Shown here in pieces: positions 12,724-48,271 of a DNA stretch of 64,000 bases. Position 1 is the stretch's first letter; each line of letters begins with the position of its first letter. The position numbers and the translations under genes were made by a program. This DNA comes from Deltaproteobacteria bacterium (GTDB lineage: Bacteria; Desulfobacterota; DSM-4660; Desulfatiglandales; Desulfatiglandaceae), in assembly GCA_019309145.1 (NCBI GenBank), contig JAFDGR010000002.1, positions 8,674 through 72,673 on the forward strand. Direction: 5' to 3'. The notes below the pieces were generated by a model that made no database searches, was not told the DNA's origin, and saw only the letters and a list, made by a program, of their open reading frames with translations.

Positions 12724-12766
12724 AATGCGCAAGAAAGGGCCAATTGAAAAGGAGTAAGGGAAGAGA

Positions 12767-15763: not shown

Positions 15764-15860
15764 GACGGCTCACCGAACCTGTTCTTACTTTCTTCAAATA
15801 GCTAACGGCTTCTGAACCAATAAATGGGATCAGTGGAAGATCAAAGTGCGAGAGAAAATA

Positions 15861-17173: not shown

Positions 17174-17653
17174 TCATTCCTTTGTCGCCACGCCAACCAG
17201 GAAACCGCACAAGAGAGAACCAAGAATGGTGGCCAGAGTGAATATGAGCACATATATCCATCCGAAGTAGGAGATCATGATCGGTAAGAGGACCGGTTTA
17301 ACCGCCCTGTTGTTCAGAAAGATGGCAATCAGGGAATCCTTTGCCCCTCTTCCCTTCAATTCCTTTAACAGAGGGTACCAGGCGTAGATCGGGCCAACCG
17401 ATATGATTCCCGCGAGTGCGGAAACAACAACGCCTTTGAACCCGGATTCTTTTCCAAGGAGTGCGGTTAGACGTGAAGGTTTCAAGAAAAGGTTGAGAAG
17501 GAATATGAGAAAGAAAACAAGACTGAGCGCGATGCCGATCCTCAAGAAAATAGATATGCTTCCCCTGAAGGCGATGAGTGCCTTGTCCGGCAAAAAAATG
17601 AGCAACACGCCGTAAATGACGGCCACGAAACCTGGAAAAAGGAAAGATCGCAC
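17174..17653 (-). CDS. C-terminal half of a split PF03773-type membrane permease
   Basis: 159-aa, four-helix hydrophobic ORF that begins 4 nt after the upstream gene on the same strand. Confidence 0.55.
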   Translation of the reverse strand: MRSFLFPGFVAVIYGVLLIFLPDKALIAFRGSISIFLRIGIALSLVFFLIFLLNLFLKPSRLTALLGKESGFKGVVVSALAGIISVGPIYAWYPLLKELKGRGAKDSLIAIFLNNRAVKPVLLPIMISYFGWIYVLIFTLATILGSLLCGFLVGVATKE

Positions 17654-17657
17654 GAAA

Positions 17658-18437
17658 CTATCCCCCGAACAGGTTCAATATCAAACCAGTGACAATTGCA
17701 GCACCTATGGAGACCACGAAAGAAAGACTGTTCCGCAGGATGGAAAACCTGGGCTCCAGGGCAACCATCTCCGCAGGCAACTGGATGAGGCCTACACTTA
17801 CCCAGGTCATCATGAATGCGGTTACCGCAAAAAGATTTACCCCATTATCCAGCATTTCGCCACCGATGATATAGCTGTTAATGGGATTCCCGGGTAGAAT
17901 ACTGCCAAAACATGCTCCCCAGATGGTGTCCACTATTTTATTTCCGGAAAATATTGAAAGCAGTAACTCTTTCGAAATGAATGCCTTGAACAGACCCATG
18001 AGGAGGACAATACTGATGAGAATCGGCAGCATTTTTCCAAATTGACCGGCAGTCTTTGACAGGGCCTCAGGGACATTTTCCCAACGGGTTTTTTCAGGCT
18101 TCGCCAATGTGGAATCAGCACTGCTTTTTCTCGGTCGCTTATATTGCTCCACCACGTGTGAAACTGTTGATTCTATCCCGGTGACGACCTCAATGTTGTA
18201 TGCCTTCAGGTAGTTTTCAGCAGCGGGACTGCTGTACCCGGTGAGCACAACATCAACTTTTTGCTCGATAGCAAGGGCAACCGCCTGCATGCCACTTCCG
18301 GAACCCGCACCAGGATTTTTCAGAGCTTCAAATGCCATGGTTTCTAGGTTCACAATGATCAGGTAAGGTGAGGTCCCGAGCCTGTGGCCCACTCTTGATT
18401 CTAAACCGGGGCCTTCTGATGAAATGGCAATTTTCAT
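17658..18437 (-). CDS. NifB/NifX-like (dinitrogenase Fe-Mo cofactor-binding fold) domain fused to the N-terminal half of a split permease
   Basis: aa 1-~100: MKIAISSEG...SRVGHRLGTSPYLIIVNLET...VDVVLTGYSSPAAENYLKAYNIEVV. aa ~130-259 are hydrophobic with GSILPGNPINSYIIGG. Confidence 0.6.
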   Translation of the reverse strand: MKIAISSEGPGLESRVGHRLGTSPYLIIVNLETMAFEALKNPGAGSGSGMQAVALAIEQKVDVVLTGYSSPAAENYLKAYNIEVVTGIESTVSHVVEQYKRPRKSSADSTLAKPEKTRWENVPEALSKTAGQFGKMLPILISIVLLMGLFKAFISKELLLSIFSGNKIVDTIWGACFGSILPGNPINSYIIGGEMLDNGVNLFAVTAFMMTWVSVGLIQLPAEMVALEPRFSILRNSLSFVVSIGAAIVTGLILNLFGG

Positions 18438-18645: not shown

Positions 18646-18951
18646 CTTGCACAGCAGCTTGGTTGTGAAATAGTAGAATTGAACATTAAAGCTGATCATG
18701 TGCATCTAATAACGAATGTTCCGCCCAAGGTTTCCATATCGCAATTGATGGGCACCCTAAAAGGGAGGACAGCGATCCGAGTTTTCAAACAATATCCATA
18801 CCTGAAGAAGAAGCCATATTGGGGCAACCACTTTTGGGCTAAAGGGTATTGTGTTGATACGATTGGTTTAGATCCCGAGATGATAAGAAAATACGTTCGC
18901 TGTCAAGAAGCGAAAGAGCGAGAACAAGAACAGCGAAGTTTTCAATTCTAA
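18646..18951 (+). pseudogene. tnpA: IS200/IS605-family tnpA remnant (5'-truncated; N-terminal HUH region missing)
   Basis: LAQQLGCEIVELNIKADHVHLITNVPPKVSISQLMGTLKGRTAIRVF...WGNHFWAKGYCVDTIG matches the C-terminal two thirds of IS200 TnpA. An in-frame stop lies at 18643. Confidence 0.75.
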
Positions 18952-19439: not shown

Positions 19440-19684
19440 CCAAATCCACAACCTTGAGCTTTATGGCCGCTTCCAACAATTTTGAGCTGTCCATCGCCGT
19501 GGCCGTGGCAGTGTTCGGGATCGACTCTGGCCAGGCCTTTGCGGCGCTCATCGGCCCCCTGGTGGGGGTGCCGGTGCTCATCAGCCTGGTCAACGTGGCA
19601 TTGTGGTTCAAGCGGCGGTATTTTCCTTATGCCGTGGAGACGCCTACCGGCGTATGCCACGTAACATGCGAACCATCGGCCTAA
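19440..19684 (+). pseudogene. acr3: 3'-terminal fragment (~79 codons) of a second acr3 gene
   Basis: [79 protein letters not shown] is paralogous to the 16690-16961 region. No upstream acr3 sequence is present. Confidence 0.8.
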
Positions 19685-19902: not shown

Positions 19903-21288
19903 ATGGGAGAAAAAGATATAACCCCTAGTCATACCTTGTTCACCTCATGCCGGATAACTTCCGGTGCCATATCTCCTTGCTGCATCATCCTGGAGAGTAT
20001 CAGTGACGGTGTTTTCACTATCGATCCGGACAAGAGAATCTCCTCTTTTAATCGGGCTGCAGAAAACATCACGGGTTTCCAGGCCGCTGAGGCAGTGGGG
20101 CATTTCTGCTTCGATATCTTCCGTGCCGACATTTGTGAAAAAAGATGCGCGCTCGACAGAACACTTGCGAGCGGCAATCCCCAGATAAATCTTCCGGCAA
20201 ATATTATTACCAAGAACGGGCGCCAGAAAATTATCAGCATCAGTACCTCTGTGCTGAAAAACGAAGTTGGGAAGATTATCGGGGCCGTGGAGACATTCAG
20301 GGACCTTTCTGAATTGCGGGAGCTGAGAAAGCATCTGACCCACAATTTTACGTCCGATGACATCGTTGGAAAACACCCGAAGATGCGCGAGATCCTCTCG
20401 TCACTTCCTGATATCGCGGCCAGTGAAAGCCCGGTGCTCATAGAAGGACCAACCGGGTCGGGCAAAGAATTGGTAGCCCGGGCCGTCCATTCCCTGAGCC
20501 CCCGAAAAAAAGGGCCTTTCGTCCCGGTAAACTGCGCGGCCCTGCCGGACACCCTTCTTGAATCAGAATTGTTCGGCTTTGCCAGAGGTGCTTTTACCGG
20601 GGCCGTCCGAAAAAAGGCTGGAAGATTCCTGTCAGCAAATAAGGGGACTATTTTCCTGGATGAAATTTCCAGTACGTCCATGGCGTTCCAGGTCCATCTC
20701 CTGAGGATCCTGGAAGACGGTGTGTTTACCCCCCTCGGGGAAACAAGACCGGTAAAGGCTGATTTTCGGGTAGTAACGGCCACAAACCATGATTTGAAGC
20801 AGTTGATGCGGGAAGGAAAGTTCAGGGAGGATCTCTACTTCAGACTGAATGTTGCCAAGATCAGCCTGCCGCCCCTCAGGGAAAGGAAGGAAGACATCCC
20901 GTTACTGATCAACCACTGCATTCAAAAATTCAATTTCATCAAGGGAAAGAACATACAGGGAGTGAGTCCTGAAGTTCTCTCATTTCTCATAGATTACCCT
21001 TTTCCCGGGAATATCCGCGAGCTGGAAAATATCATAGAATATGCCTTCATTTTGTGTAAAGGACCCACCATAGAAATGGACCACCTTTCAAAGGACCTCC
21101 TCGATGAACCGAGTGGCTGGTATCAGAGGACATATGAACCGGAAAGTCCGCAGGAGTTCAAAGAGCTGACAAAGATCCGGGCGGTACTGGAGCAGTGCCA
21201 AGGGAACCGCATTGAGGCAGCTCATGCTCTTGGTTTGAGCCGGACCACTCTCTGGCGCAAGATGAAAAAATACGGTCTCATGGGTTAA
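19903..21288 (+). CDS. Sigma-54-dependent transcriptional activator, PAS(Cys motif)-AAA+-Fis HTH, no receiver domain
   Basis: PAS domain with C69-x8-C78-x3-C82. AAA+ core shows GPTGSGKE, ESELFGFARGAFTGA (GAFTGA loop) and REDLYFRL. C-terminal HTH is GLSRTTLWRKMKKYG. Confidence 0.85.
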   Translation: MGEKDITPSHTLFTSCRITSGAISPCCIILESISDGVFTIDPDKRISSFNRAAENITGFQAAEAVGHFCFDIFRADICEKRCALDRTLASGNPQINLPANIITKNGRQKIISISTSVLKNEVGKIIGAVETFRDLSELRELRKHLTHNFTSDDIVGKHPKMREILSSLPDIAASESPVLIEGPTGSGKELVARAVHSLSPRKKGPFVPVNCAALPDTLLESELFGFARGAFTGAVRKKAGRFLSANKGTIFLDEISSTSMAFQVHLLRILEDGVFTPLGETRPVKADFRVVTATNHDLKQLMREGKFREDLYFRLNVAKISLPPLRERKEDIPLLINHCIQKFNFIKGKNIQGVSPEVLSFLIDYPFPGNIRELENIIEYAFILCKGPTIEMDHLSKDLLDEPSGWYQRTYEPESPQEFKELTKIRAVLEQCQGNRIEAAHALGLSRTTLWRKMKKYGLMG

Positions 21289-21328: not shown

Positions 21329-24262
21329 ATGAATTACAAAGAGTTGCTCGAAAAATACAATCTCTTGTTAAGCGAGAACAGCCGCTTGGTAAGAGAAAAT
21401 GACAAGCTAAAGGCACAGATTGAGAAAACGAAGCGCAGGCCTGCTGAAAAGGAATTCACAGGTTCAACCGCAGAAAAAAACATGCTTGACAATGAACCGA
21501 CTGACAGCGCCTCGCTTTCAGGTGTAAACAACAGATCGGATTCGACCTCAAAAATTAGCCTATTTATGTCGCTTTTCAAAGGCCGTGATGATGTGTATGC
21601 GAAGAAATGGGAGAACAAAAAGAAGACAACATCGGGATATTCACCCGTTTGTCTGAATCAATGGGAGGTTGGATTGTGCGGCAAGCCAAAAGCCTCCTGT
21701 TCCAAATGCGCCAATCAGTTATATGACGCTTTGGATGATCATGTCATAGAAAACCATCTGAGAGGGAGTATCATTGTCGGTATCTATCCAATGCTTCCAG
21801 ATGAAACCTGCCACTTTTTAGCAATGGATTTTGATGAAGCCGGCTGGCAAGACGATGTCACAACAGTGAGAGAGGTTTGCGTCGAGTTTGATATTCCGGT
21901 GGCGGTGGAGCGGTCGCAATCCGGTAACGGCGCGCACCTGTGGTTTTTCTTTGAAAACCGATTGCCCGCTGCCTTAGCGAGAAAGTTTGGCACCGCCATT
22001 TTGACCTTTTCTATGAACAGGAGACATGAAATACATTTCAAATCATATGACAGATTGTTTCCCAGTCAGGACACAATGCCCAAAGGAGGTTTTGGCAATC
22101 TGATTGCTCTGCCATTCCAAAAATCTGCAAGGAAGAACAATAATAGCGAATTTATCGATGAAAGCTTTGAATCCTATAGTTATCAGTGGGCATTTTTGTC
22201 ATCGATTCAAAAGATTTCTGAAGACCGCATTAAGGATCTTATACAGAAGCTTTGTCATGACCATGAATTGGGGGCCTTGAAAATCGACGAAGAGGAACAA
22301 GGAAAGCCATGGGAAACACAACCAATCAGCCACCTGAAAAAAAGCGATTTTCCAGAGCAAATCGATATCGTGAAAGCAAATATGTTGTTTATTCCAAAGC
22401 GCAATATCTCCCAAAGGGCATTGAACCGATTGAAAAGATTGGCTTCTTTTAAAAACCCAATGTTTTACAAGCAGCAAGCCATGCGGTTGTCAACGTACGG
22501 ATACCCAAGGATTATCTCGTGTGCGGATGAAACGACGGACTATCTGTGTTTGCCGAGAGGCTGTGAAATGGACCTGCTGGCTGAATTAAAACAATATGGT
22601 ATAGATACTCATCTTATCGATAAGACCTATTGCGGGAAAAGAATAGATGTAGAATTCAACGGCCACTTAAGAGATGAACAACCTTTGGCCCTTGATCAGC
22701 TAATGCAGTATGATATTGGAATACTTTCAGGAACAACCGCTTTTGGGAAAACCATCGTAGCCATCAAGCTGATCGCCGAAAGAAAAGTCAATACCCTTAT
22801 CTTGGTGGATAGGATCGGCTTGCTCAAACAATGGCAGGAACGGTTATCTGAATTTTTGGTCATAAATGAAACCTTACCGGAACTGATTACTCCAGCAGGC
22901 AAAAAAAGAGGGAGAAACAAAAAGGCGGGCGTCATCGGCCAGATGGGCGGGGGCAAAAAAGCCCTAAGTGGTATTGTGGATATTGCCGTTATGCAATCCT
23001 TAAGCAGGAGGGGAGAGGTAAAGAATTGTGTCAAAGACTATGGGATGGTTATTGCGGATGAGTGTCATCATGCTTCGGCTTTCAGCTATGAAAGTATTCT
23101 GAAGGCCACAAATGCCAAGTATGTTTACGGCCTGACAGCCACACCGACACGAAAGGATGGACATCATCCCATACTTTTTATGCATTGCGGTCCAATACGG
23201 TATCGCGATAATGCAAAAAAGCAGGCAGAGAAGAGACCTTTTGACCACTATATCATTCCCCGGTTTACGCGCCTGAGAATTCCTTTGAATAGTGATGAAA
23301 AGGATATTTCCATCCAGGAATTGTATTCTGAAGTTATTGATAATGAACCCCGGAATCAGCAAATTGTCGAAGACGTTCTAGACAGCTATAAACGTGGCAG
23401 GAACTGCATTATTCTAACATTAAGAACCACTCATGTTGAACTGCTTGCGAAGAAATTAGGGGAAGAAATCTCGGATGTTGTGGTGCTGATGGGTGGAATG
23501 GGTTCAAAGACAACACGGGAGGTTCTTCAACGCATTAGGAACACGCCGGCAGATAAAAATCTGATATTGGTGGCTACAGGGCCTTTTATCGGAGAAGGCT
23601 TTGACGAACCTCGCCTTGATACGTTGTTCTTGACTATGCCGGTATCGTGGAAAGGCACACTCCAGCAATATGCCGGAAGACTTCATCGACTGTTTATGGA
23701 TAAAAAGGAAGTGCAGATCTATGATTATGTGGATATCCATGTAAGAATGCTGGAAAGAATGTATCAGAAAAGACTTACTGGGTATGCTTCGATGGGATAC
23801 AAAGCAAAAAGCGAAAATAACATGTCAGCATCATTGGATATTATTTTTGATAAGGACAGCTTTTTGCCTGTTTTCAGCAACGATGTTGCTGCCACAAAAA
23901 AAGAAATTTTAATGGTAAGCCCCTTTGTGAGAAAGAGGCGTTCAGTGCAAATGCTACAACACTTGAGAATCGCCGTTGACAAAGGCATCCGAGTCATTGT
24001 TGTGACAAGACCGGCAGAGGCTTTTGAAGCCAAAGATCGAGTTGCGTTGCAGCGAGTATTGGAGGTACTGGAAAACAACGATATAAGTGTTATTTTTAAA
24101 CCCAATATTCATCAAAAATTCGCAATCATGGATCAAAAGACTGTGTGGTATGGCAGCATCAATCTCTTGAGCTACGGCAATGCTCAGGAAAGCATCATGC
24201 GCATTGAAAGCCCCAATATCGCAAATGAGTTGATGAGAAGTGTAGAAAGCTTGAGCCCCTAA
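21329..24262 (+). CDS. Fusion protein: coiled coil + Cys4 + archaeo-eukaryotic primase (AEP) domain + SF2 DExH helicase + C-terminal HKD (PLD-family) nuclease
   Basis: AEP motifs are AMDFDE (aa 165-170), SGNGAHLWFFF (198-208) and YDRLFP (240-245). Helicase motifs are GTTAFGKT (468-475), DECHH (577-581), TATP (603-606) and QYAGRLHR (779-786). The PLD motif is HQKFAIMDQKTVWYGSIN (928-945), i.e. HxK-x4-D-x6-GSxN. Confidence 0.8.
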   Translation: MNYKELLEKYNLLLSENSRLVRENDKLKAQIEKTKRRPAEKEFTGSTAEKNMLDNEPTDSASLSGVNNRSDSTSKISLFMSLFKGRDDVYAKKWENKKKTTSGYSPVCLNQWEVGLCGKPKASCSKCANQLYDALDDHVIENHLRGSIIVGIYPMLPDETCHFLAMDFDEAGWQDDVTTVREVCVEFDIPVAVERSQSGNGAHLWFFFENRLPAALARKFGTAILTFSMNRRHEIHFKSYDRLFPSQDTMPKGGFGNLIALPFQKSARKNNNSEFIDESFESYSYQWAFLSSIQKISEDRIKDLIQKLCHDHELGALKIDEEEQGKPWETQPISHLKKSDFPEQIDIVKANMLFIPKRNISQRALNRLKRLASFKNPMFYKQQAMRLSTYGYPRIISCADETTDYLCLPRGCEMDLLAELKQYGIDTHLIDKTYCGKRIDVEFNGHLRDEQPLALDQLMQYDIGILSGTTAFGKTIVAIKLIAERKVNTLILVDRIGLLKQWQERLSEFLVINETLPELITPAGKKRGRNKKAGVIGQMGGGKKALSGIVDIAVMQSLSRRGEVKNCVKDYGMVIADECHHASAFSYESILKATNAKYVYGLTATPTRKDGHHPILFMHCGPIRYRDNAKKQAEKRPFDHYIIPRFTRLRIPLNSDEKDISIQELYSEVIDNEPRNQQIVEDVLDSYKRGRNCIILTLRTTHVELLAKKLGEEISDVVVLMGGMGSKTTREVLQRIRNTPADKNLILVATGPFIGEGFDEPRLDTLFLTMPVSWKGTLQQYAGRLHRLFMDKKEVQIYDYVDIHVRMLERMYQKRLTGYASMGYKAKSENNMSASLDIIFDKDSFLPVFSNDVAATKKEILMVSPFVRKRRSVQMLQHLRIAVDKGIRVIVVTRPAEAFEAKDRVALQRVLEVLENNDISVIFKPNIHQKFAIMDQKTVWYGSINLLSYGNAQESIMRIESPNIANELMRSVESLSP

Positions 24263-30280: not shown

Positions 30281-31915
30281 GTGGAAGACCGTAGCAAGAA
30301 AATAGAGCGGCTCAACCTTGTATTGCAGACCATGCGGGATGTGAGCGGTCTTATTATCAAGGAAAAGAACCGGGAGCAGTTGCTCAGTGGTATATGCCAT
30401 GCCCTTATTCAACATCGCGGCTATTACAACGCGTGGGCTGTTTTGTTCGATGAACAAGGCAATGCGGCCATGAGTGCGGAGGCCGGGATCGGCCCGAAGT
30501 TTTTGCAATTAAGGGACTTCATGCGTGGTGGACACCAGCCCCCATGTGTTGACCTGGCCTTGAAAAAAAAGGATATTGTGGAGACGGGTGATCCCGTATC
30601 CACCTGCACGGACTGCCCTCTTGCAGAGGACTACCATGGAAGGGGGGCCCTCACCGCTCCTTTTGTGCTCGATGGAAGCGTGTACGGTATATTGTCCCTT
30701 TCCATTCCACGCAAAGTGGCCCATGATCAGGATGAGCAGACCCTCCTGAGGGATCTTGCCGCGGATATCGCTTTTGGTTTGCATGCCCTTGAGCTTGAAG
30801 AAGCAAGGGAAGAGACCGCCAAGGCCCTGGCCGAGAGTGAGGAACGATTCCGCGATCTCCTGGAGAAATGCCCGATTGGTATTTTTATTATCCAGGATAA
30901 CCAGGTAGTGTATCAGAACCCCCAGCAGAAAGAGTTGCTGGGACCGCTTCCCCGCTCATTCGACCTGGGGACTTTTGAAGGTTTGCACCCCGAGGACGTG
31001 GAAAAGGTCAGGACAATGTGCAACAATGTTGCCAAGGGTAAGGCCAAGAGCCTTAGTGCAGATTTCAGGTTGTGCCCCGTGACCGAACCGGACTGTCATC
31101 TGGGGAGAAAATGGATCTATTGCTACGCCTCCCAGATACACTACCAGGGAAAAGACGCGACCCTCGTGAACATGATGGATATTACCCGGTCGAAGGAACT
31201 GGAGCACCTGGTCAGGATCCAGGATAAGATGACCTCCCTGGGGCGTGTGGCCGCGGGGATCGCCCACGAGATTCGAAATCCGCTTTCAGGCATCAATATC
31301 TATCTGAAGACCCTGGAGAGACTCCTGGAGCGGGGAATGGACCGGGAAAAGGCGGAAGATATCCTTAATCATATTCAATCCGCCTCCAATAAGATCGAAT
31401 CTGTTGTGAAGAGAGTCATTGACTTTTCCAGGCCGAGCCGTCCCAATTTTATTCTGGCAAACATAAACGGGCCCATTGAGGATGCCATTTCGCTTTCTGC
31501 GGTCACCTTGAGAAAGAGCCGGATCAGTCTTGAAAAAAAACTGCAAAAGGATATCCCTGAGTGTACGCTTGATAAGCATCTCATGGAGGAGGTGATCCTG
31601 AATCTGATTACCAATGCTGTTGAGGCCCTGAGAAAAACAGAGGGCGAACGAAACCTGGAAGTGAACTCTTTTGCTGAAGGCGAGTCAATATTTGTGCGGA
31701 TAGCTGATTCAGGACCGGGAATTCCACTTGATTTACGGGAGCAGGTTTTTGATCCTTTTTTCAGCACAAAAGATGGGGGCACGGGCATTGGCTTGAGCCT
31801 CAGCCACCGGATAGTGGTGGATCACGGGGGCTCCCTGAGTGTCTCCACCAGCAAATGGGGAGGCGCTGAATTCCTGATTGAGATACCCTGTCGAAAAGGG
31901 GGGCGGAAAAGGTGA
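30281..31915 (+). CDS. Cytoplasmic GAF-PAS sensor histidine kinase (NtrB-like)
   Basis: No TM segment. H-box is GRVAAGIAHEIRNPL. HATPase motifs are NLITNAVEA, DSGPGIP and GTGIGLSLS. GTG start. Confidence 0.85.
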   Translation: MEDRSKKIERLNLVLQTMRDVSGLIIKEKNREQLLSGICHALIQHRGYYNAWAVLFDEQGNAAMSAEAGIGPKFLQLRDFMRGGHQPPCVDLALKKKDIVETGDPVSTCTDCPLAEDYHGRGALTAPFVLDGSVYGILSLSIPRKVAHDQDEQTLLRDLAADIAFGLHALELEEAREETAKALAESEERFRDLLEKCPIGIFIIQDNQVVYQNPQQKELLGPLPRSFDLGTFEGLHPEDVEKVRTMCNNVAKGKAKSLSADFRLCPVTEPDCHLGRKWIYCYASQIHYQGKDATLVNMMDITRSKELEHLVRIQDKMTSLGRVAAGIAHEIRNPLSGINIYLKTLERLLERGMDREKAEDILNHIQSASNKIESVVKRVIDFSRPSRPNFILANINGPIEDAISLSAVTLRKSRISLEKKLQKDIPECTLDKHLMEEVILNLITNAVEALRKTEGERNLEVNSFAEGESIFVRIADSGPGIPLDLREQVFDPFFSTKDGGTGIGLSLSHRIVVDHGGSLSVSTSKWGGAEFLIEIPCRKGGRKR

Positions 31916-33303
31916 TGACTCTTTCTACCATCTTTGTCATTGACGACGAGGAAGTCATACGGGAGGGGATAGCGGTTGCCCTCGAAAGGGACTATTCCAT
32001 CAAACCGTTTGGCACGGCGGAATCCGCCCTCGAAAACATGGAACATGATTCGCCTGATCTGGTCCTGCTGGATATCGGCCTGCCCGGGATGGATGGCATA
32101 CAGGCCCTTCAGGAAATAAAGAAAAGGTGGAGCGATATACCGGTTATCATGATCACCGCGTATGAGGACGTGCAAACCGTCATATCAGCCATGAAGCTGG
32201 GTGCTCATGATTACGTGGTAAAGCCCATCCACATGGACGCCCTGGAAGTGAGTATCCGGAACGCCCTGGAGACGGTCAAGCTGAAAAAGGAGGTCCAGGC
32301 ACTCCAGGAGAAATACCTGAAGGAAAACCTCCCTTGTTTCATCGGGGAAAGCAACGCGATCCAGGACGTCATGGAATTTATCGATCAGGTGGCAAAGAGT
32401 CCTGACACGCCTATCCTCATTATCGGAGAGACTGGAACCGGGAAAGAACTCATCGCCAGCGCGATCCATTACAGGAGCCCGAATTTCAGCGGGCCACTGG
32501 TGACGGTCAATTGCGCCGCTATCCCGAAGGACCTCGTGGAGAGTGAACTTTTCGGGTACGAGAAAGGGGCCTTCAGCGGAGCCAGTCCTTCGGGGAAGAT
32601 CGGCCTGGTTGAAGAGGCGGCAGGAGGGACCCTGTTTCTTGACGAGGTTGGTGACCTGAGCCAGGAGGCCCAGGCGAAGCTGCTCCGGTTTCTGGAAGAC
32701 GGGCAATTTTACCGGGTGGGCGGAACCAGGCAGCGCAAGGTGCAAACAAGGGTCGTTTCCGCCACCAATAAAGACCTGGAAGACATGGTAAAGGAAGGTC
32801 ATTTCAGGAAGGATCTCTATTTCCGGCTGGGGGTTATCAGGGTAGAGGTCCCGTCATTAAACGAACGCAAGGATGACATCATGCCACTTGCGCAGGCATT
32901 CCTCCTGGAATTCAACAAGAAATTCGGGAAAAAAATAACCGGCCTGTCAAGAGATGCCGAAAATGGGCTGCTCGGCCACACGTGGACGGGCCACGTACGG
33001 GAATTGAGGAATTTGATTGAACGGGGTGTTCTTATCGGCAGCGGTCCTGTCCTCACCGTGGACGACCTTGGTATTGCAAAAAAAAAGGGCACGAAACCAG
33101 GGCAACCAAAAGAGGAGGGAATGCCATTCCCACCCTTTCCCAGGGAAGGAATGGATTTGGATAAGGCCAAAGAAGCCCTTGAAAGGTATTATATTGAGCA
33201 GGCCTTCAAACTGGCCGGGGGAAACGAGAGCAAGGCCGCGCGGCTCTTAAACATGAATCACCACACCTACCGCTACCGGAGAAGAAAACTCCTCGGATCG
33301 TAA
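31915..33303 (+). CDS. NtrC-family response regulator (REC-AAA+ sigma-54 activator-Fis HTH)
   Basis: DLVLLDIGLPGMDG, GETGTGKE, ESELFGYEKGAFSGA, RKDLYFRL. The start overlaps the kinase stop (GTGATG). Confidence 0.9.
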   Translation: MTLSTIFVIDDEEVIREGIAVALERDYSIKPFGTAESALENMEHDSPDLVLLDIGLPGMDGIQALQEIKKRWSDIPVIMITAYEDVQTVISAMKLGAHDYVVKPIHMDALEVSIRNALETVKLKKEVQALQEKYLKENLPCFIGESNAIQDVMEFIDQVAKSPDTPILIIGETGTGKELIASAIHYRSPNFSGPLVTVNCAAIPKDLVESELFGYEKGAFSGASPSGKIGLVEEAAGGTLFLDEVGDLSQEAQAKLLRFLEDGQFYRVGGTRQRKVQTRVVSATNKDLEDMVKEGHFRKDLYFRLGVIRVEVPSLNERKDDIMPLAQAFLLEFNKKFGKKITGLSRDAENGLLGHTWTGHVRELRNLIERGVLIGSGPVLTVDDLGIAKKKGTKPGQPKEEGMPFPPFPREGMDLDKAKEALERYYIEQAFKLAGGNESKAARLLNMNHHTYRYRRRKLLGS

Positions 33304-33495
33304 GATCCACGGTTCACGGTAAATCTCTTCCGGATTTAATCATGTCGGCTCTTCACCAGGCAAGCAAAGCCATTTTGAAAATCTTCTAAAAACCATTTCG
33401 AAGTTTTCCTATATTCTTCCCTTAAAATCTGAATCCTGCGCTCATATTTTTGATAACTAATTGAAATGACGTATGGTTATGCTCTTCCAGGTGAT

Positions 33496-33511
33496 TGGCA
33501 CATATTGTGCT
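33496..33511 (+). promoter_or_regulatory. Sigma-54 (-24/-12) promoter
   Basis: TGGCAC-atatt-GTGCT, with GG and GC at the canonical 10-nt offset. It is oriented toward the flavoenzyme gene at 33760. Confidence 0.65.
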
Positions 33512-36745: not shown

Positions 36746-36931
36746 ATGTATAAACCTGAAGTCAATGTTGAGAAGTGTATTGGTTGCGAAGAATGCGTGG
36801 ACGTATGTCCGGTTGATGTTTACGAAATGCAGGATGGGAAGTCCGTCCCGGTGAACGGGGAAGAATGCCTTGGATGCGAGAGTTGTATAGAGGTATGTGA
36901 ACAGGAAGCAATTACGGTCTCGGAAGTTTGA
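36746..36931 (+). CDS. Small 2x[4Fe-4S] ferredoxin
   Basis: CIGCEECVDVCP and CLGCESCIEVC. 61 aa. RBS AAGGAGGAAAGAGG. Confidence 0.8.
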   Translation: MYKPEVNVEKCIGCEECVDVCPVDVYEMQDGKSVPVNGEECLGCESCIEVCEQEAITVSEV

Positions 36932-36984
36932 GCCTGTGCATAAAAAGAGATAAGGAAATTTTAATGGAAGAGAGGAAGGGAAAA

Positions 36985-37302
36985 ATGGTCAAGGAGATAA
37001 CAGAACAGGATTTTGAAAAAGAGGTGGTAAAATCGGAAACACCGGTTCTGGTGGATTTTTGGGCTCCGTGGTGTGGTCCTTGCCACATGGTTTCACCGGC
37101 TATCGAAAAGCTTTCCGGCGATTATGACGGGAAATTCAAGTTTTGTAAGATGAATGTTGATGAGGCCCAAAAAACGGCCCTGAACTACGGGATTATGAGC
37201 ATCCCCACGCTGATGTTTTTCAAAGACGGAAAAAGGGTGGATGAAATCGTGGGGGCGGTCCCGGAATCAATGATCGCGGAAAAAATTGAATCCCTTCTTT
37301 AA
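36985..37302 (+). CDS. trxA: Thioredoxin
   Basis: VLVDFWAPWCGPCHM and GIMSIPTLMFFKDG. The ATG is preceded by GAGGAAGGG. Confidence 0.9.
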   Translation: MVKEITEQDFEKEVVKSETPVLVDFWAPWCGPCHMVSPAIEKLSGDYDGKFKFCKMNVDEAQKTALNYGIMSIPTLMFFKDGKRVDEIVGAVPESMIAEKIESLL

Positions 37303-39403: not shown

Positions 39404-39637
39404 ATGCCGAGAGGTGATGGAACAGGCCCGAGAGGGCAAGGACCCGGTACCGGAAGAGGAATGGGAGGCCGCGGAGGCATGGGAGGCGGCGGTGGAAGAG
39501 GCCGAGGAGGTGGTTTCGGCGCAGGCCCGGGCGGCTCCTGTGTTTGTCCGAACTGTGGAGAAAAGGTTGCGCATCAGGCAGGCGTGCCTTGCTACGATCA
39601 GCGTTGCCCAAAATGCGGAACCATGATGACCCGTTGA
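39404..39637 (+). CDS. DUF5320-type Gly/Arg-rich zinc-ribbon protein
   Basis: MPRGDGTGPRGQGPGTGRGMGG..., then CVCPNCG...CPKCG. RBS AAAGGAGG. Confidence 0.6.
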   Translation: MPRGDGTGPRGQGPGTGRGMGGRGGMGGGGGRGRGGGFGAGPGGSCVCPNCGEKVAHQAGVPCYDQRCPKCGTMMTR

Positions 39638-39665: not shown

Positions 39666-40715
39666 ATGGACATTTTTTCCATCATACAACACTCACTTCT
39701 GATTACCTTTTTTGTGTTTTCCATGATGCTCCTGGTGGACTTCGTCAATATTGCCACCAGGGGTGCCACGTCCAGGCTTATGCAAGGAGGCCGGTGGCGC
39801 CAGTACACGCTGGCCTCCTTTCTTGGTTCCACCCCCGGGTGTCTCGGGGCGTTCATGAACGTAACCCTGTATGTACACGGTATGTTGTCTTTCGGGGCTG
39901 TAACGGGGGGAATGATTGCGACCTCAGGCGATGAGGCCTTTATCATGCTTTCCCAGTTTCCAGGAACTGCCATGATGCTTTTTGGGTTGCTGTTTGTGCT
40001 GGGAATCGGCTTCGCGTGGTTGAGTGATCGTTTGATAAAGATATTGCACGTAACCCCTTGCGAGGCTTGTCTCCAGGCCGACTGCGAAGAATGTATGGGA
40101 GCAGTCGAAGATTCTCCTCCGGCCTGGCATGCATTCCGGTTCGAAAATGTATGGAAAAATGTGAGAGATCCATCGTTTACCCGTTTCCTTCTCTTCATAT
40201 TGATAGGGTCTTTCCTTGTGCTGGTCCTGGCAGGTATTATCGGCGATCCGAATTGGACGTGGAAACGTATCACGTTTCTCAGCCTTACCCTTTCTTCCTT
40301 GTATATCATTATGGTTTCTTCCGAGCACTATCTGCACGCCCATATCTGGGATCACATCATGAAGCGGCATCTCTTCCGGGTTTTCCTGTGGACGTTTGGC
40401 GCCCTGTTTTTTCTTCATTGGGGGCTGTCTTTCTGGAACCTGGACGCGGTTATTAAAACACATATGATGTGGGTGTTGCTGCTGGCGGCGCTCATGGGGA
40501 TTGTTCCCGAATCGGGCCCCCATCTTATTTTTGTGATGATGTATGCAAAAGGGCTCATTCCCTTTTCCGTGCTTCTCACGAGTTCATTTGTGCAGGACGG
40601 ACACGGAATGCTTCCGCTTTTGTCATACAGCATCAAAGACTCGATCCTTATCAAGGTCCTGAATTTTATCTTTGGTATTGGAATAGGTTTTATCCTTTAC
40701 GCTTTTGGCGTTTGA
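39666..40715 (+). CDS. Polytopic membrane protein (DUF2899 / ArsP_2-like putative metal transporter)
   Basis: 349 aa with about 10 hydrophobic helices and a central Cys/His-rich loop, CEACLQADCEECMG. The family name is from memory. Confidence 0.5.
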   Translation: MDIFSIIQHSLLITFFVFSMMLLVDFVNIATRGATSRLMQGGRWRQYTLASFLGSTPGCLGAFMNVTLYVHGMLSFGAVTGGMIATSGDEAFIMLSQFPGTAMMLFGLLFVLGIGFAWLSDRLIKILHVTPCEACLQADCEECMGAVEDSPPAWHAFRFENVWKNVRDPSFTRFLLFILIGSFLVLVLAGIIGDPNWTWKRITFLSLTLSSLYIIMVSSEHYLHAHIWDHIMKRHLFRVFLWTFGALFFLHWGLSFWNLDAVIKTHMMWVLLLAALMGIVPESGPHLIFVMMYAKGLIPFSVLLTSSFVQDGHGMLPLLSYSIKDSILIKVLNFIFGIGIGFILYAFGV

Positions 40716-40746
40716 GTAATTTTTGAACAGAGGCTCTTGTTATCTT

Positions 40747-41886
40747 ATGGCCGATTTTTTGGAAAAGAAGAATATTGCGGTTCCAGAGAGAGATGACTCG
40801 CAGACCCTCAGCTTTTACAAGTTTGTGTTGGACAGTGTTCCGGTCGCCATCCTTACGGTAAATGCTGACTTGCGGATCACAGGGTTTAACCCGTGGGCTC
40901 AAGAAATCACGGGGTATTCTTCAGAAGAAGTTGCAGGAAAATACTGTGGTGAGATCCTCCAAGGGGGAATGTGTTCCAGCCATTGCCCATTGAGGACAGT
41001 TATCGGGGGGCATGTTCCCATATCCCTTGTAGAATCAACTATTCGAAATAAGTGGGGAGAAACCATTCCAGTGAGGATGAATACCGCAGGATTATTTGAC
41101 AATAGTGGGAATCTCATTGGAGGGGTGGAATCATTTCAAGATATTTCCCGACTCAAGGCACTTGAAAGAGAGAAAAACAATCTCATTTCCATGTTCGCTC
41201 ATGACATGAAATCGTCTCTTACCATTATTGGCGGTTTTGTTCTTCGGCTCCTCAAGAAACAAAGGAATAATTCACCTGAGAAAGAAAAGAAATATCTCAC
41301 CATAGCAAAGAATGAGTCCGCTAGGCTTGAGGCCCTCGTCAATGAATTCCTTGAATTCTCCCGGCTCCAGACCGGAAAAATTCGCCTAGATCTTGCCGCA
41401 ACTTTGCTTGATAAAGAGTTGCTGGAAATGTTTGATGCATATCAACTTGAAGCCTCTCAGCACGGCATCAGGCTCGAACTTGAAAATGAAGAAGAACTTC
41501 CCATAATCCAGGCCGATGCTATTCAGCTCCGGAGGGTTTTTTCCAACTTGCTGGATAATGCAATAAAGTTTACCCAAGAGGGGGGAGCAATCTGGCTGGA
41601 GACGGGCAAAACCAAAGATGAGGTGTTTGTCCAGATTAGAGATGAGGGTATCGGCATTCCTTCGGAGGAACTCCCTTTCATTTTTGATCCGTTTCACCGG
41701 GGCCAGGCTGTTCGCGATAAAAAAGGTTTCGGCCTGGGACTTGCCGGGGTAAAGGCGATCGTTGAAGCGCATGGCGGACATATCAGGGTTTCGAGTGAAC
41801 CGCTGAAGGGTTCAGTGTTTACGGTGGTTTTGCCAAGGGAAGACAGCAAAAATATTGGCGGCGATATGGCCTCCCGCGACAACTGA
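40747..41886 (+). CDS. Soluble PAS(Cys motif) sensor histidine kinase
   Basis: PAS domain with C67-x8-C76-x3-C80. H-box is ISMFAHDMKSSL. HATPase motifs are NLLDNAIKFT and GFGLGLAGVKAIVEAHGG. Confidence 0.85.
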   Translation: MADFLEKKNIAVPERDDSQTLSFYKFVLDSVPVAILTVNADLRITGFNPWAQEITGYSSEEVAGKYCGEILQGGMCSSHCPLRTVIGGHVPISLVESTIRNKWGETIPVRMNTAGLFDNSGNLIGGVESFQDISRLKALEREKNNLISMFAHDMKSSLTIIGGFVLRLLKKQRNNSPEKEKKYLTIAKNESARLEALVNEFLEFSRLQTGKIRLDLAATLLDKELLEMFDAYQLEASQHGIRLELENEEELPIIQADAIQLRRVFSNLLDNAIKFTQEGGAIWLETGKTKDEVFVQIRDEGIGIPSEELPFIFDPFHRGQAVRDKKGFGLGLAGVKAIVEAHGGHIRVSSEPLKGSVFTVVLPREDSKNIGGDMASRDN

Positions 41887-41920
41887 CATTTCTGGCAAAA
41901 AGCCGAAAAGGAATTCGTGT

Positions 41921-43312
41921 ATGACAACTCCATATTTCCTGGATGAACCGTCGCCGGAACGGTTTGAGGCGGTGATTCAGAGCATCAGTGATGGGGTGAT
42001 GACCGTTAATGCCGAATGGCGGATCACCTGTTTTAACAAGGCTGCCGAGCGGATTTCCGGGATATCACGCAAAGAGGCCATGGGCCGCCATTGCTATGAA
42101 GTCCTGAAGTCAAACCTTTGCAGGGACACCTGTGCCATGCGGTATACTATTGAGACCGGAAGGCCGGTTGTGAATCTCGCGGTATATCTGGAAAATAGCC
42201 ATGGCACACAGGTCCCGGTGAGTATTTCCACCGCAGTATTTAAAGATAAAAACGGCAATTTAAAGGGGGGGGTGGTAACGTACCGTGATCTCAGGGAGGT
42301 TGAGGAGTTTCGGAAGGAAATAAAAAAGGCTTACTCCTTTGGAGATATTATCAGTAAGAGTAATAAAGTACGAAAAATCCTGGATGTTCTTCCCACCATA
42401 GCGGAAAGTGAAAGTACCGTATTGATAACCGGAGAGAGCGGCACCGGGAAAGAAATATTTGCCAGGGCGATTCATGGATTAAGTCAGAGAAAGAAGAAGC
42501 CGTTTGTTGCGGTCAATTGTGGAGGATTCCCGGAAACTCTGATCGAGTCGGAGCTTTTTGGGCATGAAATAGGCGCTTTCACCGGGGCAACCAGGGCACG
42601 GGAGGGACGTTTTGCAAGGGCGGAAGGAGGCACGCTGTTCCTTGATGAAATTGGAGACCTGCCTTTTCCCCTCCAGGTGAAATTGCTCCGGGTATTGCAG
42701 GAGAGGACCTACGAACCTCTTGGTGGTACCCATCCCTTGCGTGCCAACGTGCGGATCATCACGGCAACCAACCGTAATCTTCAAGAAATGGTTGCGGAGG
42801 GCAGCTTCAGGCAGGACCTGTTTTACAGGATCAATGTGATCAAACTGGAGATTCCCCCTTTGCGGGACCGGCTGGAGGACGTGCCGTTGCTGGTTGACCA
42901 TTTTATCAGTCGGTTTTCGGCCCTGCACAATAAAGACATCGGAGCTATTTCTCACGACGCAATGGATATTCTGATGAGCCATGATTATCCGGGAAATATT
43001 CGGGAGCTTGAAAATATCATCGAACATGGATGTGTGCTCTGTCCCGGCGGCCTGATTCAGGTAAAACACCTGCCCGATGCATTGCGTCCCACCCTGGATT
43101 CTTTTGTCCGCGCTGATACTTTTGAAGAAATGGAGCGGCAGTTCATCATTTATATGCTGAAGAAGAACAATTGGAATCGACTCGCAGCGGCCCGCGAGAT
43201 GGGAATCCACAAGACAACCCTTTTCCGAAAAATAAAGAAACTCGGGATTCGGTTGCCTGAGAAGGATGGCCGGCACAAATCCGGGCGTAAGGTAGCGTCA
43301 GCGCATCTGTAG
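41921..43312 (+). CDS. Sigma-54-dependent activator, PAS(Cys motif)-AAA+-HTH, no receiver domain
   Basis: PAS domain with C58-x8-C67-x3-C71. AAA+ core shows GESGTGKE, ESELFGHEIGAFTGA and RQDLFYRI. HTH is GIHKTTLFRKIKKLG. Confidence 0.85.
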   Translation: MTTPYFLDEPSPERFEAVIQSISDGVMTVNAEWRITCFNKAAERISGISRKEAMGRHCYEVLKSNLCRDTCAMRYTIETGRPVVNLAVYLENSHGTQVPVSISTAVFKDKNGNLKGGVVTYRDLREVEEFRKEIKKAYSFGDIISKSNKVRKILDVLPTIAESESTVLITGESGTGKEIFARAIHGLSQRKKKPFVAVNCGGFPETLIESELFGHEIGAFTGATRAREGRFARAEGGTLFLDEIGDLPFPLQVKLLRVLQERTYEPLGGTHPLRANVRIITATNRNLQEMVAEGSFRQDLFYRINVIKLEIPPLRDRLEDVPLLVDHFISRFSALHNKDIGAISHDAMDILMSHDYPGNIRELENIIEHGCVLCPGGLIQVKHLPDALRPTLDSFVRADTFEEMERQFIIYMLKKNNWNRLAAAREMGIHKTTLFRKIKKLGIRLPEKDGRHKSGRKVASAHL

Positions 43313-43432
43313 GGTTTCCCAAAAAGTAGCATTTCTGCAACCCTTACTGTTCTCTTTTTATCGGCCTTTTTTTATCTCTATCTAACCTATTGAAAAAACA
43401 GGCTTAAATTGGTAGCCCATAACCTCCTTTTT

Positions 43433-43448
43433 TGGCACGTTTGATGCT
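43433..43448 (+). promoter_or_regulatory. Sigma-54 (-24/-12) promoter
   Basis: TGGCAC-gtttg-ATGCT with GG/GC at canonical spacing. It lies about 55 nt upstream of the microprotein ATG. Confidence 0.65.
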
Positions 43449-43503
43449 CTAAGAAGAAAGTGAGAGGAATCAAAACATTGATACTAAGAAAGGAGAAAAG
43501 AAA

Positions 43504-43689
43504 ATGGCAGAAGACAAAAGACTCGAGGCTACCACCGATACACACAAGCCCGCTCGTCCGCTGAAGTACTTTCAGGACAAAGACGGGAACGGATGGCTGT
43601 GCGACAAGGACATCGATTTTGATGGTGACCTGCGGGAGCAGGGCTGCTGGAGATGTGATGAGATGGCTTTCCCGGCTGGTGGGAGGTAA
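43504..43689 (+). CDS. 61-aa Cys-containing microprotein, copy 1
   Basis: MAEDKRLEATTDTHKPARPLKYFQDKDGNGWLCDKDIDFDGDLREQGCWRCDEMAFPAGGR. RBS AAAGGAG. The paralog at 44293 differs mainly at synonymous sites. Confidence 0.65.
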   Translation: MAEDKRLEATTDTHKPARPLKYFQDKDGNGWLCDKDIDFDGDLREQGCWRCDEMAFPAGGR

Positions 43690-43695
43690 TCGGTG

Positions 43696-43720
43696 CCATC
43701 CCGCAAAACAGGCGGGATGG
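43696..43720 (+). promoter_or_regulatory. Intercistronic stem-loop after microprotein copy 1
   Basis: CCATCCCGC-aaaacag-GCGGGATGG (9-bp stem) followed by an A-run, not a U-tract. Confidence 0.45.
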
Positions 43721-43806
43721 AAAAAGTTCACCGGAATATCCTGGCGGTCCATGAATAACGTGTGTGGACGCCAGGGTATTCCCTTATGCTGGAAGGAGCG
43801 AGGAAG

Positions 43807-44262
43807 ATGTACAAGAAAATTCTATTTTGTACCTGCCTGAGCGATTACTGCGAACATATATTCAATTTTTCTCTCAATATGGCGAAAGAAAATAACGCAA
43901 GGCTCTGGATTTATCACGGGCTCGGACGTCTCAACCTGACACAAGATGAGATAACGCAAGAAATAGGCAAGGCAGAAGCGCAGGTAAAGGAAGCGTATGT
44001 TGGCAAGATGAAGGCCCAGGGATTTGATAATTATTCCATCAATGTCTCTGACGGGGATGTGGTGAGTGAGATTGTCAAGCTTGCCAGGAATGTGGTGGCG
44101 GATGTTATTGTTATGGGAACCGGGACAACGGTTCCCATGCAGGCGGGAGAAGACGTCAGGGTAGGTCCTTTAGGGCCAGTGACGATGGATACCCTGCTGT
44201 GGTCACCCTGTCCCGTCCTGGTTATACCGCCGGCCCTGGTGCCCGGTCTTACAAGGAGATAG
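43807..44262 (+). CDS. Universal stress protein (UspA family)
   Basis: MYKKILFCTC...ADVIVMGTG...TLLWSPCPVLVIP. RBS GGAAGGAG. Confidence 0.75.
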   Translation: MYKKILFCTCLSDYCEHIFNFSLNMAKENNARLWIYHGLGRLNLTQDEITQEIGKAEAQVKEAYVGKMKAQGFDNYSINVSDGDVVSEIVKLARNVVADVIVMGTGTTVPMQAGEDVRVGPLGPVTMDTLLWSPCPVLVIPPALVPGLTRR

Positions 44263-44292
44263 ATATTTTTTGGGAAGAAAGGAGAAAAGAAA

Positions 44293-44478
44293 ATGGCAGA
44301 AGACAGAAGACTCGAGGCTACGACCGATACTCACAGGCCCGCTCGTCCTTTAAAGTACTTTCAGGACAAAGACGGGAACGGGTGGCTCTGCGACAAGGAC
44401 ATCGATTTTGACGGTGATCTGCGGGAGCAGGGTTGCTGGAGATGCGATGAGATGGCTTTCCCGGCTGGTGGCCGCTGA
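44293..44478 (+). CDS. 61-aa Cys-containing microprotein, copy 2
   Basis: It differs from copy 1 by 2 K->R changes plus 12 synonymous codon changes. The 21-nt leader AAGAAAGGAGAAAAGAAAATG is identical. Confidence 0.65.
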   Translation: MAEDRRLEATTDTHRPARPLKYFQDKDGNGWLCDKDIDFDGDLREQGCWRCDEMAFPAGGR

Positions 44479-47248: not shown

Positions 47249-47508
47249 AAAAGGAACGCATTGATTGCGTCCCTCCCGGGTCGGCTTTTTCCACTTTCTC
47301 AATTTTGGGAAAAGACGATTTGAAATTTCTCGAAATTTTTCTCCTTTCACCCGGCGTGTGTATCAACGCAACTCGCATAACTCCTTGTATTTACAGGCAT
47401 GAGCTTCCGAAATGAAGGTGGCATATTTCATGCTAAATTATATTGACGAGGAGCTGTTTGAAAAGATCAACCGCGACTGGAGGCCCTGCCTTATCAGAAA
47501 TTATTGAT

Positions 47509-47937
47509 ATGAACCTTTTCCCTGAGTTGAAAAATCTAAAAGTATTACTCGTCGATGATGACGAGTGGATCAGGCATTCACTGGGGTTATACTTTGAAGG
47601 AGAGGGCTGCCATATCCTGACGCTTGAGACCGCTGAGGAAGGAATGGAGGCCGTCAAAAAGCAAGAATTCGATATTATCATAACAGATTATCGGTTGCCG
47701 GGCATGGACGGACTGGAATTTCTTCGGTTGATTCGAGGGATTTCCCCAAAAGCAAAGAGGGTCCTGGTTACCGCGTACGGGAACGAGGATGTTATCACCA
47801 GGGCCCGCGAGATAGGTATCCGGAACTTTATACGAAAGCCTTTCAGTTCCAGTGCTCTTGAGGCTTCCTTAAAGCGAATGGTGCATCCCCGGGAGGATTT
47901 CCTCGGTCATGCCAAAGAGGAAGGTATTCATGGGTGA
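47509..47937 (+). CDS. Stand-alone CheY-like receiver protein
   Basis: KVLLVDDDEW, FDIIITDYRLPGMDG, VLVTAYG, FIRKPF. Confidence 0.8.
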   Translation: MNLFPELKNLKVLLVDDDEWIRHSLGLYFEGEGCHILTLETAEEGMEAVKKQEFDIIITDYRLPGMDGLEFLRLIRGISPKAKRVLVTAYGNEDVITRAREIGIRNFIRKPFSSSALEASLKRMVHPREDFLGHAKEEGIHG

Positions 47938-47980: not shown

Positions 47981-48271
47981 ATGGGTTCGACTTTTCGCAT
48001 TCATGTCCATCCGAGTTGTGATAGTGTGCACCTGAGGCTGGAAGGCGATATTAATGGCCTGTCCGCGTATGAACTGCTGGAGGTGTTGAAGAAAAACTGC
48101 CGGTGGGCCACAAGAGCCTTTATCCATACGAGCAACTTGAGCAGCGTCCATCCTTCAGCCCGCATGGTCCTGGAGAACAACCTCGGAGCGCTGGACGGCA
48201 AGTGTCTTCCGCTTTTTTTCACCGGAGATCATGCTGAGCAGCTTGCCCCTGGGGACAGCAAACTCTCTTAA
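47981..48271 (+). CDS. Small hypothetical protein, possibly STAS-like
   Basis: 96 aa. The ATG is preceded by TAAGGAGGG. VHLRLEGDINGLSAYELLEVL resembles anti-sigma-antagonist folds only loosely. Confidence 0.4.
   Translation: MGSTFRIHVHPSCDSVHLRLEGDINGLSAYELLEVLKKNCRWATRAFIHTSNLSSVHPSARMVLENNLGALDGKCLPLFFTGDHAEQLAPGDSKLS

Follow-up and report, generated by a model that had tools for sequence, protein, structure and literature searches.

A cysteine-triad PAS sensor, probably of the OrpR iron-sulfur type, on a soluble histidine kinase and two one-component sigma-54 activators of a Desulfatiglandaceae bacterium

Introduction

The only characterised protein with a cysteine-triad PAS sensor in the literature that we searched is the sigma-54 activator OrpR (DVU2106) of Desulfovibrio vulgaris Hildenborough, composed of a PAS domain, an AAA+ motor and a helix-turn-helix (HTH) domain. 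The OrpR PAS domain contains the conserved cysteines C52, C61 and C65, the mutation of which abolishes redox control. Ultraviolet-visible (UV-vis) and electron paramagnetic resonance (EPR) spectroscopy reveal in this domain a [4Fe-4S]2+ cluster, which is oxidised to [3Fe-4S]1+; a conserved Asp or Glu at position 54 is named by the authors as a possible fourth ligand (PMC8359166). In this report we analyze a 64,000-nucleotide stretch of a Desulfatiglandaceae genome (assembly GCA_019309145.1, contig JAFDGR010000002.1, positions 8,674 to 72,673; hereafter the window), in which a soluble histidine kinase, the sigma-54 activator encoded directly behind it (activator A) and a distant sigma-54 activator (activator B) carry PAS domains with a C-x8-C-x3-C motif. 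We consider it probable that all three proteins use an OrpR-type iron-sulfur (Fe-S) sensor, in separate kinase and activator branches.

Three further systems provide points of comparison. NreB is a soluble histidine kinase with an N-terminal PAS domain that holds an Fe-S cluster, [4Fe-4S] in Staphylococcus and [2Fe-2S] with only three cysteines in Bacillus licheniformis (PMC13478379); our literature search for Fe-S PAS kinases returned NreB-type cases only. In the NifL-NifA system of Azotobacter vinelandii, a kinase-like redox-PAS protein is encoded directly upstream of a sigma-54 activator that lacks a receiver (REC) domain. Finally, 15 of the 37 sigma-54 activators of D. vulgaris are one-component regulators, and six of these contain a PAS domain (PMC4641369).

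Three proteins with a cysteine-triad PAS domain

The kinase gene (40747-41886, + strand; alternative start TTG at 40723) codes for a soluble protein with PAS, HisKA and HATPase_c domains, the cysteine triad C67/C76/C80, the acidic residue E69 and the phospho-acceptor H152. Activator A (41921-43312, + strand, in an open reading frame (ORF) that extends from 41855) consists of PAS, Sigma54_activat, AAA_lid_14 and HTH_8 domains with a GAFTGA loop, and carries the triad C58/C67/C71 together with E60. Activator B (19903-21288, + strand) shares the domain order of activator A and contains C69/C78/C82 and D71. The codons of the three motifs span 40945-40986, 42092-42133 and 20107-20148, respectively, all on the + strand and precisely where a preceding sequence-only reading had placed them. 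PAS_9, PAS_4 and PAS models of Pfam match above cut-off in all three proteins, and no NCBIfam model reaches its cut-off for the kinase or either activator. A domain scan found no Response_reg domain in any of the three, in agreement with the earlier statement that neither the kinase nor its adjacent activator has a receiver.

Judged by spacing and position in the sequences, the triad corresponds to C52/C61/C65 of OrpR, and the motif as such is not new. All three proteins of the window resemble OrpR in having C-x8-C-x3-C within an N-terminal PAS domain and an acidic residue two positions after the first cysteine (Cys1+2; CGE in the kinase, CYE in activator A and CFD in activator B). Activators A and B share with OrpR the complete build of PAS, AAA+ and HTH_8 without a receiver, and activator B as well as a paralogue on another contig (L017; L numbers designate loci in related genomes or on other contigs, and G numbers genomes) adjoin Nitro_FeMo-Co (Orp-like) genes. 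Assessed by eye, the 13 OrpR homologues of the published Figure S2 (PMC8359166) closely match the window activators in the sequence flanking the triad, and the kinase less closely. The proteins also differ from OrpR. The kinase has HisKA and HATPase_c domains in place of AAA+ and HTH, both window activators have a GAFTGA loop where OrpR has GAFTDA, and no orp operons flank activator A, which probably targets an operon for microproteins and a stress protein. The setting of OrpR orthologues, between divergent orp operons and with the palindrome GGGCGYRTTTTGCGCCC, was found at neither activator, and the palindrome itself has 0 matches in the window at up to three mismatches.

The structural evidence supports a cofactor site. 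A PDB sequence search with the triad PAS domain found no solved member of the subtype and returned only a weak match to a LOV kinase (expect (E) value 0.0077), in the alignment of which Cys1 takes the position of the flavin-binding cysteine of the LOV kinase domain (3t50). The AlphaFold2 (AF2) model of the kinase PAS domain is of high confidence (predicted local distance difference test (pLDDT) 94.8) and places Cys1 at the start of a short helix, Cys2 in the following loop and Cys3 just ahead of the next helix. The nearest solved folds by Foldseek are PAS domains that bind a cofactor, namely those of DosP (haem), NifL (flavin adenine dinucleotide, FAD) and LOV domains, with template modelling (TM) scores of 0.73-0.80. 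NreB resembles the kinase in general build, but its motif is C-x2-C-x11-C(-x2-C) instead of C-x8-C-x3-C and it has a cognate regulator, NreC; no NreB chain was returned by the PDB sequence search or was among the Foldseek matches listed.

The following picture may be drawn by analogy with OrpR. The three cysteines, joined in most members by the Asp or Glu at Cys1+2, would hold a [4Fe-4S] cluster in the cofactor pocket of the PAS domain, and oxidation or loss of the cluster would report a rising cytoplasmic redox potential, oxygen or a poor Fe-S supply. In activators A and B the PAS domain would gate the AAA+ motor, as in OrpR; in the kinase the same kind of cluster would tune autophosphorylation of H152. 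The sequence-only reading had proposed a metal, Fe-S or thiol-redox site for the cysteines; the notion of a cofactor site is supported and has a published precedent in the [4Fe-4S] PAS domain of OrpR, which shares the triad spacing.

Conservation of the triad and its spread among anaerobes

To assess conservation, one genome per species was scanned, yielding 80 loci with orthologues of the kinase (49-84% identity). All belong to Desulfobacterota, mostly to uncultured Desulfatiglandales, Desulfobacteraceae and Syntrophaceae. One cultured species among them, Desulfoferrobacter suflitae (L063), has a kinase of 58% identity. Three loci (L025, L045 and L094) contain no intact kinase ORF as called and were omitted from the counts, which hence refer to 77 loci. 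The triad is kept in 75 of these 77 ORFs, that is, in every one of the 75 that can be judged, since one of the other two is cut by a contig end and the second has an ambiguous residue (X) at Cys1. A proline directly follows Cys3 in all 75 triad-bearing orthologues, Cys1+2 is Asp or Glu in 63 of them, and the AHD phospho-acceptor box is present in every orthologue ORF checked.

A multiple alignment of 75 PAS domains (the three of the window, 69 of kinase orthologues and three of other paralogues in this genome) contains four invariant columns, three of which are the cysteines; the conservation that the earlier reading had proposed to check by alignment is thus borne out. Among 71 full-length kinases the invariant residues are C67, C76, C80, P81, H152, N267, N271, D299 and G303. 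The HisKA and HATPase_c domains are those of a two-component kinase, and because the catalytic histidine and the residues of the N-box and G-box are kept in all 71, the kinase is, to judge from its sequence, a working enzyme and not a decayed one. It is a member of a conserved family of soluble kinases.

The PAS domains of the kinase and of activators A and B share 29-32% identity when aligned. The two activators are 45% identical paralogues; another paralogue of activator B, with 69% identity, is encoded on a different contig of this genome. A FastTree phylogeny of the PAS domains, which is indicative only as support values were not considered, places the kinase domains in one clade and those of chemoreceptors in another; activator A groups with activators that neighbour kinase orthologues, and activator B with two paralogues from the same genome. 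Because of the low identity and the separate kinase clade, the three PAS domains are, on this sequence comparison, old lineages and not recent copies.

The module is widespread. Of the 151 genomes sampled from the order, 54 contain an orthologue of the kinase; among the 90 of high quality, the figure is 41. The host genome (4.1 Mb in 404 contigs, 94% complete) encodes seven triad-PAS proteins; all seven of its strong PAS matches carry the motif, and each has Asp or Glu at Cys1+2. When a set of 1.84 billion representative proteins was scanned in full with the PAS domain of the kinase, 14,810 matched; among the best 150, 69 contain the motif, in many cases as two or three copies in tandem. With 17 short fragments left aside, the domain scan of the other 52 motif-bearing matches identified 20 sigma-54 activators, 16 histidine kinases, nine chemoreceptors and seven proteins with PAS domains only. 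The triad module is thus found on kinases, chemoreceptors and many activators of uncultured anaerobes, with up to seven copies per genome. Should the cluster chemistry of OrpR extend to the kinase clade, sensing of redox state or metals through Fe-S clusters would be a general signaling input of anaerobes and not confined to a single regulator. Sensors of the kinase type, as well as their recurrent link to a module of receiver and STAS-like protein described below, are uncharacterised in the literature searched.

One of the host's triad-PAS proteins has an unusual build. It is encoded at 2347-3906 (- strand) of another contig (L015), directly downstream of a histidine kinase gene that is cut by the contig end, and its 519 amino acids comprise a receiver, a sigma-54-type AAA+ domain without GAFTGA and a C-terminal triad PAS domain, with no HTH; for an output that does not bind DNA, this is an odd arrangement.

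The kinase and activator A: probably neighbours more than partners

The sequence-only reading described the kinase and activator A as a pair that lacks a receiver, yet the idea of an aberrant two-component system is not supported. Sigma-54 activators with a PAS domain and no receiver are normal one-component regulators, and therefore the missing receiver of activators A and B is not an anomaly: both unite sensor, motor and DNA-binding domain in one protein, differ in nothing essential from the described one-component PAS activators, and are ordinary, self-contained members of this class. Moreover, the gene order is rarely kept. A triad-PAS activator lies directly adjacent to the kinase in only six of the 77 loci (L018, L019, L020, L038, L087 and L095) and within three genes of it in eight. 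In L021, a related metagenome-assembled genome whose kinase is 84% identical, the segment corresponding to 41866-43964 of the window is missing; it comprises activator A, the promoter behind it, the gene of the first microprotein and the 5' part of the gene for the stress protein. Since L021 keeps the kinase without activator A, the kinase does not depend on this activator. Nor does it commonly have a receiver at hand: none is adjacent in the window, and one is found within two ORFs of the kinase in only five of the 77 loci. As far as gene order tells, the kinase is usually an orphan, and the locus is mostly a juxtaposition of a one-component activator and an orphan kinase with the same sensor. 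At the level of the locus the yield is therefore modest, as the logic of one-component activators and orphan kinases explains the missing receiver.

Within the window, the two genes nevertheless look co-transcribed: the kinase stop codon and the start of activator A are separated by 34 nt with an AAGGA ribosome site, and there is no terminator-like site in between (the terminator scan of the window as a whole is not above chance, with 15 sites against 14.2 expected). The kinase would then be a branch of its own, transcribed together with activator A, and the two proteins most likely read the same signal in parallel.

Alternatively, the kinase might control activator A as in NifL-NifA, by direct contact or through a PAS-PAS heterodimer without phosphotransfer, in which case no receiver would be needed. 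The close spacing, the ribosome site and the lack of an intervening terminator-like site fit such an arrangement, as do orthologues of activator A (52-56% identity) at most three genes from the kinase in the distant loci L087, L090, L093 and L095, and the presence of the NifL PAS domain (2gj3) and of the NifL-NifA complex (9qq6) among the nearest solved folds. A complex prediction for the kinase and activator A also weakly favours contact, with a score of 0.53 against 0.01 for the best of three controls. Of 157 solved complexes, 116 attained the mark applied, as did two of 215 mismatched pairs, and scores at the mark but not above 0.60 were obtained for only 18 of the 157 solved complexes and for both passing mismatches. 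The runs share at least 64% of their contacts, the partners have pLDDT values of at least 77, and as the prediction used our own alignments, these calibration counts are only rough. However, at so low a score most passes are false, and the prediction gave no interface. Furthermore, the PAS domains of the two chains are homologous, and solved structures exist of PAS dimers and of NifL-NifA, so the score may reflect likeness only.

Other evidence also speaks against control by contact. All catalytic residues are kept in the 71 kinase orthologues, the place of the NifA GAF domain is taken by a PAS domain in activator A, and NifL senses via FAD, whereas the kinase and activator A both bear a cysteine-triad PAS domain. 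In addition, the adjacency is lost in most relatives, with L021 lacking activator A altogether. We therefore hold a NifL-NifA-like mechanism to be unlikely, and prefer parallel sensing by an orphan kinase and a one-component activator.

A probable target operon of activator A

The sigma-54 consensus matches 21 sites in the whole window against 34.3 expected, which is not above chance, and therefore only intergenic position and conservation were used to select promoters. Three intergenic sites score 18 or higher, at 33496, 43433 and 47419. The best of them, at 43433-43448 (+ strand, TGGCACGTTTGATGCT), lies 120 nt past the stop codon of activator A and is conserved in L019, L020 and L067. It is preceded at a distance of about 100 nt by a near-palindrome, GTAGCA-N4-TGCAAC (43326-43341, + strand), which is a candidate upstream activating site; this is the sole match on the + strand of the window at zero or one mismatch, and similar elements occupy the equivalent place in L019, L020 and L067.

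Downstream of this sigma-54-type promoter follow genes for a 61-amino-acid microprotein with three cysteines (43504-43689), a universal stress protein (43807-44262) and a second three-cysteine microprotein of 61 amino acids (44293-44478) that is 97% identical to the first, all on the + strand. This gene order is repeated in L019 and L020, and the three genes (43504-44478) constitute the probable target operon. Based on the position and conservation of these elements, activator A probably drives promoter 43433; most likely it would bind to 43326-43341 and fire the promoter for the twin microproteins and the stress protein.

A candidate phosphotransfer partner of the kinase

The phosphate of the kinase would be passed to a receiver encoded elsewhere. 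The best candidate is a stand-alone receiver at 47509-47937 (+ strand), the existence of which, already pointed out from the sequence, is confirmed by a Response_reg match (E 7.9e-27). It is followed by a gene for a 96-amino-acid protein (47981-48271, + strand) that matches no Pfam or NCBIfam family. The AF2 model of this small protein (pLDDT 89.9) retrieves SpoIIAA and RsbV by Foldseek (E 1e-4, TM 0.6-0.7), and it is predicted to adopt a STAS, or anti-sigma-antagonist-like, fold. Of the 151 genomes of the order, 80 contain the STAS-like gene, in many cases immediately behind that of a stand-alone receiver; F47, H49 and T50 are invariant in its product.

The gene for the STAS-like protein recurs beside kinases of the triad-PAS family. 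It is found at a distance of about 8 kb or less from such a kinase in the window, in L021/G130, L032, L034, L052, L053, L068 and G084, and it is directly adjacent to the kinase in four of the loci that link both; in G130 the order is receiver, STAS-like gene and triad-PAS kinase. L021 further contains, at 12739-13773, a second triad-PAS kinase directly after the pair of receiver and STAS-like genes. The receiver, too, has likely orthologues in the vicinity of kinase orthologues, in L021 and L081 (48-73% identity) and, as a 44% identical fragment, in L078. The next best REC domain in the host genome is 37% identical to the receiver at 47509.

The search for orphan receivers that the earlier reading had called for was carried out genome-wide. 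With crude local profiles, the host genome contains 98 REC ORFs and 76 kinase ORFs, with 24 hybrids among them. Among the 74 non-hybrid REC ORFs, 39 have no kinase within two ORFs, one of them being the receiver at 47509; 17 of these 39 are small stand-alone receivers of less than 190 amino acids. With 39 unpaired receivers the census cannot decide the partner of the kinase, and the earlier view that this partner is not evident from the locus still stands. On genomic association, we regard the receiver at 47509, together with its STAS-like protein, as the best lead, albeit a tentative one that we rate at somewhat less than an even chance.

The promoter of the receiver gene is a sigma-54-type site at 47419-47434 (+ strand) that is conserved in L021/L100 and has a conserved upstream element, TTCGAAATTTCTC, unlike that of promoter 43433. 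Because of this difference, promoter 47419 is probably served by another activator. That activator A also drives the receiver operon was considered and rejected, as the upstream elements differ and the 43326 site is unique in the window.

A more far-reaching scheme would have the triad-PAS kinase define a conserved route among relatives of sulfate reducers, in which a sensor of Fe-S or metal status signals to a receiver-only protein and a divergent STAS-like partner-switching protein instead of to a DNA-binding regulator; where both are co-encoded, the kinase might in addition act directly on the REC-less activator with the same sensor. We deem this scheme rather improbable. If it were true, Fe-S or metal status would be linked to genes for metal exporters and stress proteins via two interlocked outputs.

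Gene neighbourhood and the nature of the signal

Upstream of the kinase lie genes for a Gly-rich zinc-ribbon protein with a weak DUF5320 match (39404-39637, + strand) and, directly adjacent, for an ArsP_2 permease (39666-40715, + strand) that scores 126.5 bits with the NCBIfam model ‘arsenic efflux protein’ (cut-off 100). The order of zinc-ribbon gene, permease gene and kinase gene is kept in L018-L021. More broadly, triad-PAS genes often stand beside genes for metal transport and Fe-S handling. Within three ORFs of the 77 kinase orthologues, in a tally that has no background control, metal or metalloid transporters were found at 27 loci (ArsP_2, ArsP_1 halves, CDF fused to Nitro_FeMo-Co, ZIP, FeoB, ABC-3 and DUF364), Orp-like genes at 19 (Nitro_FeMo-Co, a ParA/NUBPL fusion like MrpORP, or DUF5320-like) and genes for thioredoxin, OYE, DUF1638 or ETF-QO proteins at 12; at least one of the three classes occurs at 37 of the 77 loci. 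Orp proteins count among the Fe-S or metal-sulfide proteins, and MrpORP serves as an Fe-S carrier (PMC6345978). The Orp-like neighbours thus fit a sensor of Fe-S or redox status.

The transporters, in turn, raise the question whether a soft metal or metalloid, such as As(III), Zn, Cd or Fe2+, is bound directly by the cysteines of the kinase clade, with the kinase as a metal-stress sensor for the exporters nearby. The kinase follows a permease above the cut-off for arsenic efflux proteins, transporter genes neighbour its orthologues at more than a third of the loci, and the window contains ArsP_1, an SBF-family transporter and TauE exporters in addition. Sites formed by three thiolates are established for As(III) in ArsR-type sensors. 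On the other hand, an acidic candidate for a fourth ligand is kept in most of the kinases, Fe-S and Orp-like genes occur in the same neighbourhoods, and the transporter enrichment is uncontrolled; the homologous domain of OrpR has been shown to hold an Fe-S cluster (PMC8359166). We thus judge direct metal binding to be a minor prospect, to be rated behind control of activator A by contact. A metal-free thiol-disulfide switch is highly improbable, for although the domain has three conserved cysteines and a thioredoxin gene lies near the window kinase (36928-37302; thioredoxin is found at four of the 77 loci in a cluster tally), spectroscopy of OrpR reveals a cluster (PMC8359166), and three invariant cysteines with an acidic residue and an invariant proline exceed the needs of a disulfide pair.

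An OrpR-type Fe-S sensor on all three proteins hence appears the best overall explanation, yet a number of points count against it or against the outputs assigned above. A cofactor is not demonstrable from sequence, and the likeness to OrpR is founded on the motif and a by-eye reading of a published alignment. The acidic residue at Cys1+2 is absent from 12 of the 75 kinase orthologues. The neighbour tally has no control, and ArsP_2, CDF, ZIP and FeoB near the kinases suit direct sensing of metals or metalloids as well. As to the outputs, sigma-54 matches in the window as a whole do not exceed chance, so that the promoters are argued from intergenic position and conservation only; the receiver at 47509 is one of 39 without a nearby kinase, and the upstream element of its promoter is not that of promoter 43433.

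Activator B and other genes of the window

The surroundings of activator B appear rearranged. Divergent from it are two genes (17174-18437, - strand), the first for a Nitro_FeMo-Co domain (NifX/Orp-like) fused to a membrane part and the second for an ArsP_1-like half permease; the fusion gene lies 1.5 kb from activator B, across an IS200-like fragment. No sigma-54 site for a target of activator B was found between 18438 and 19902. Just upstream of activator B, 19442-19684 (+ strand) is an 80-amino-acid 3' fragment, 91% identical, of the SBF-family transporter gene at 15846-16961, and beside it lies the IS200-like transposase fragment (18679-18951). Directly after activator B, a gene for a 977-amino-acid protein (21329-24262, + strand) with AEP-TOTE primase, helicase and PLD domains, i.e. 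a TOTE conflict system, suggests a defence or mobile island.

A classical GAF kinase and a REC-type sigma-54 activator are encoded at 30281-33511 (+ strand). The strong sigma-54-type site at 33496 comes after this activator and upstream of a gene for an OYE-family flavin oxidoreductase; OYE, DUF1638 and thioredoxin genes recur near kinase orthologues in other loci. Finally, 6512-9316 (- strand) codes for a molybdopterin oxidoreductase fused to a nitrate-reductase-delta (TorD/NarJ-like) domain.

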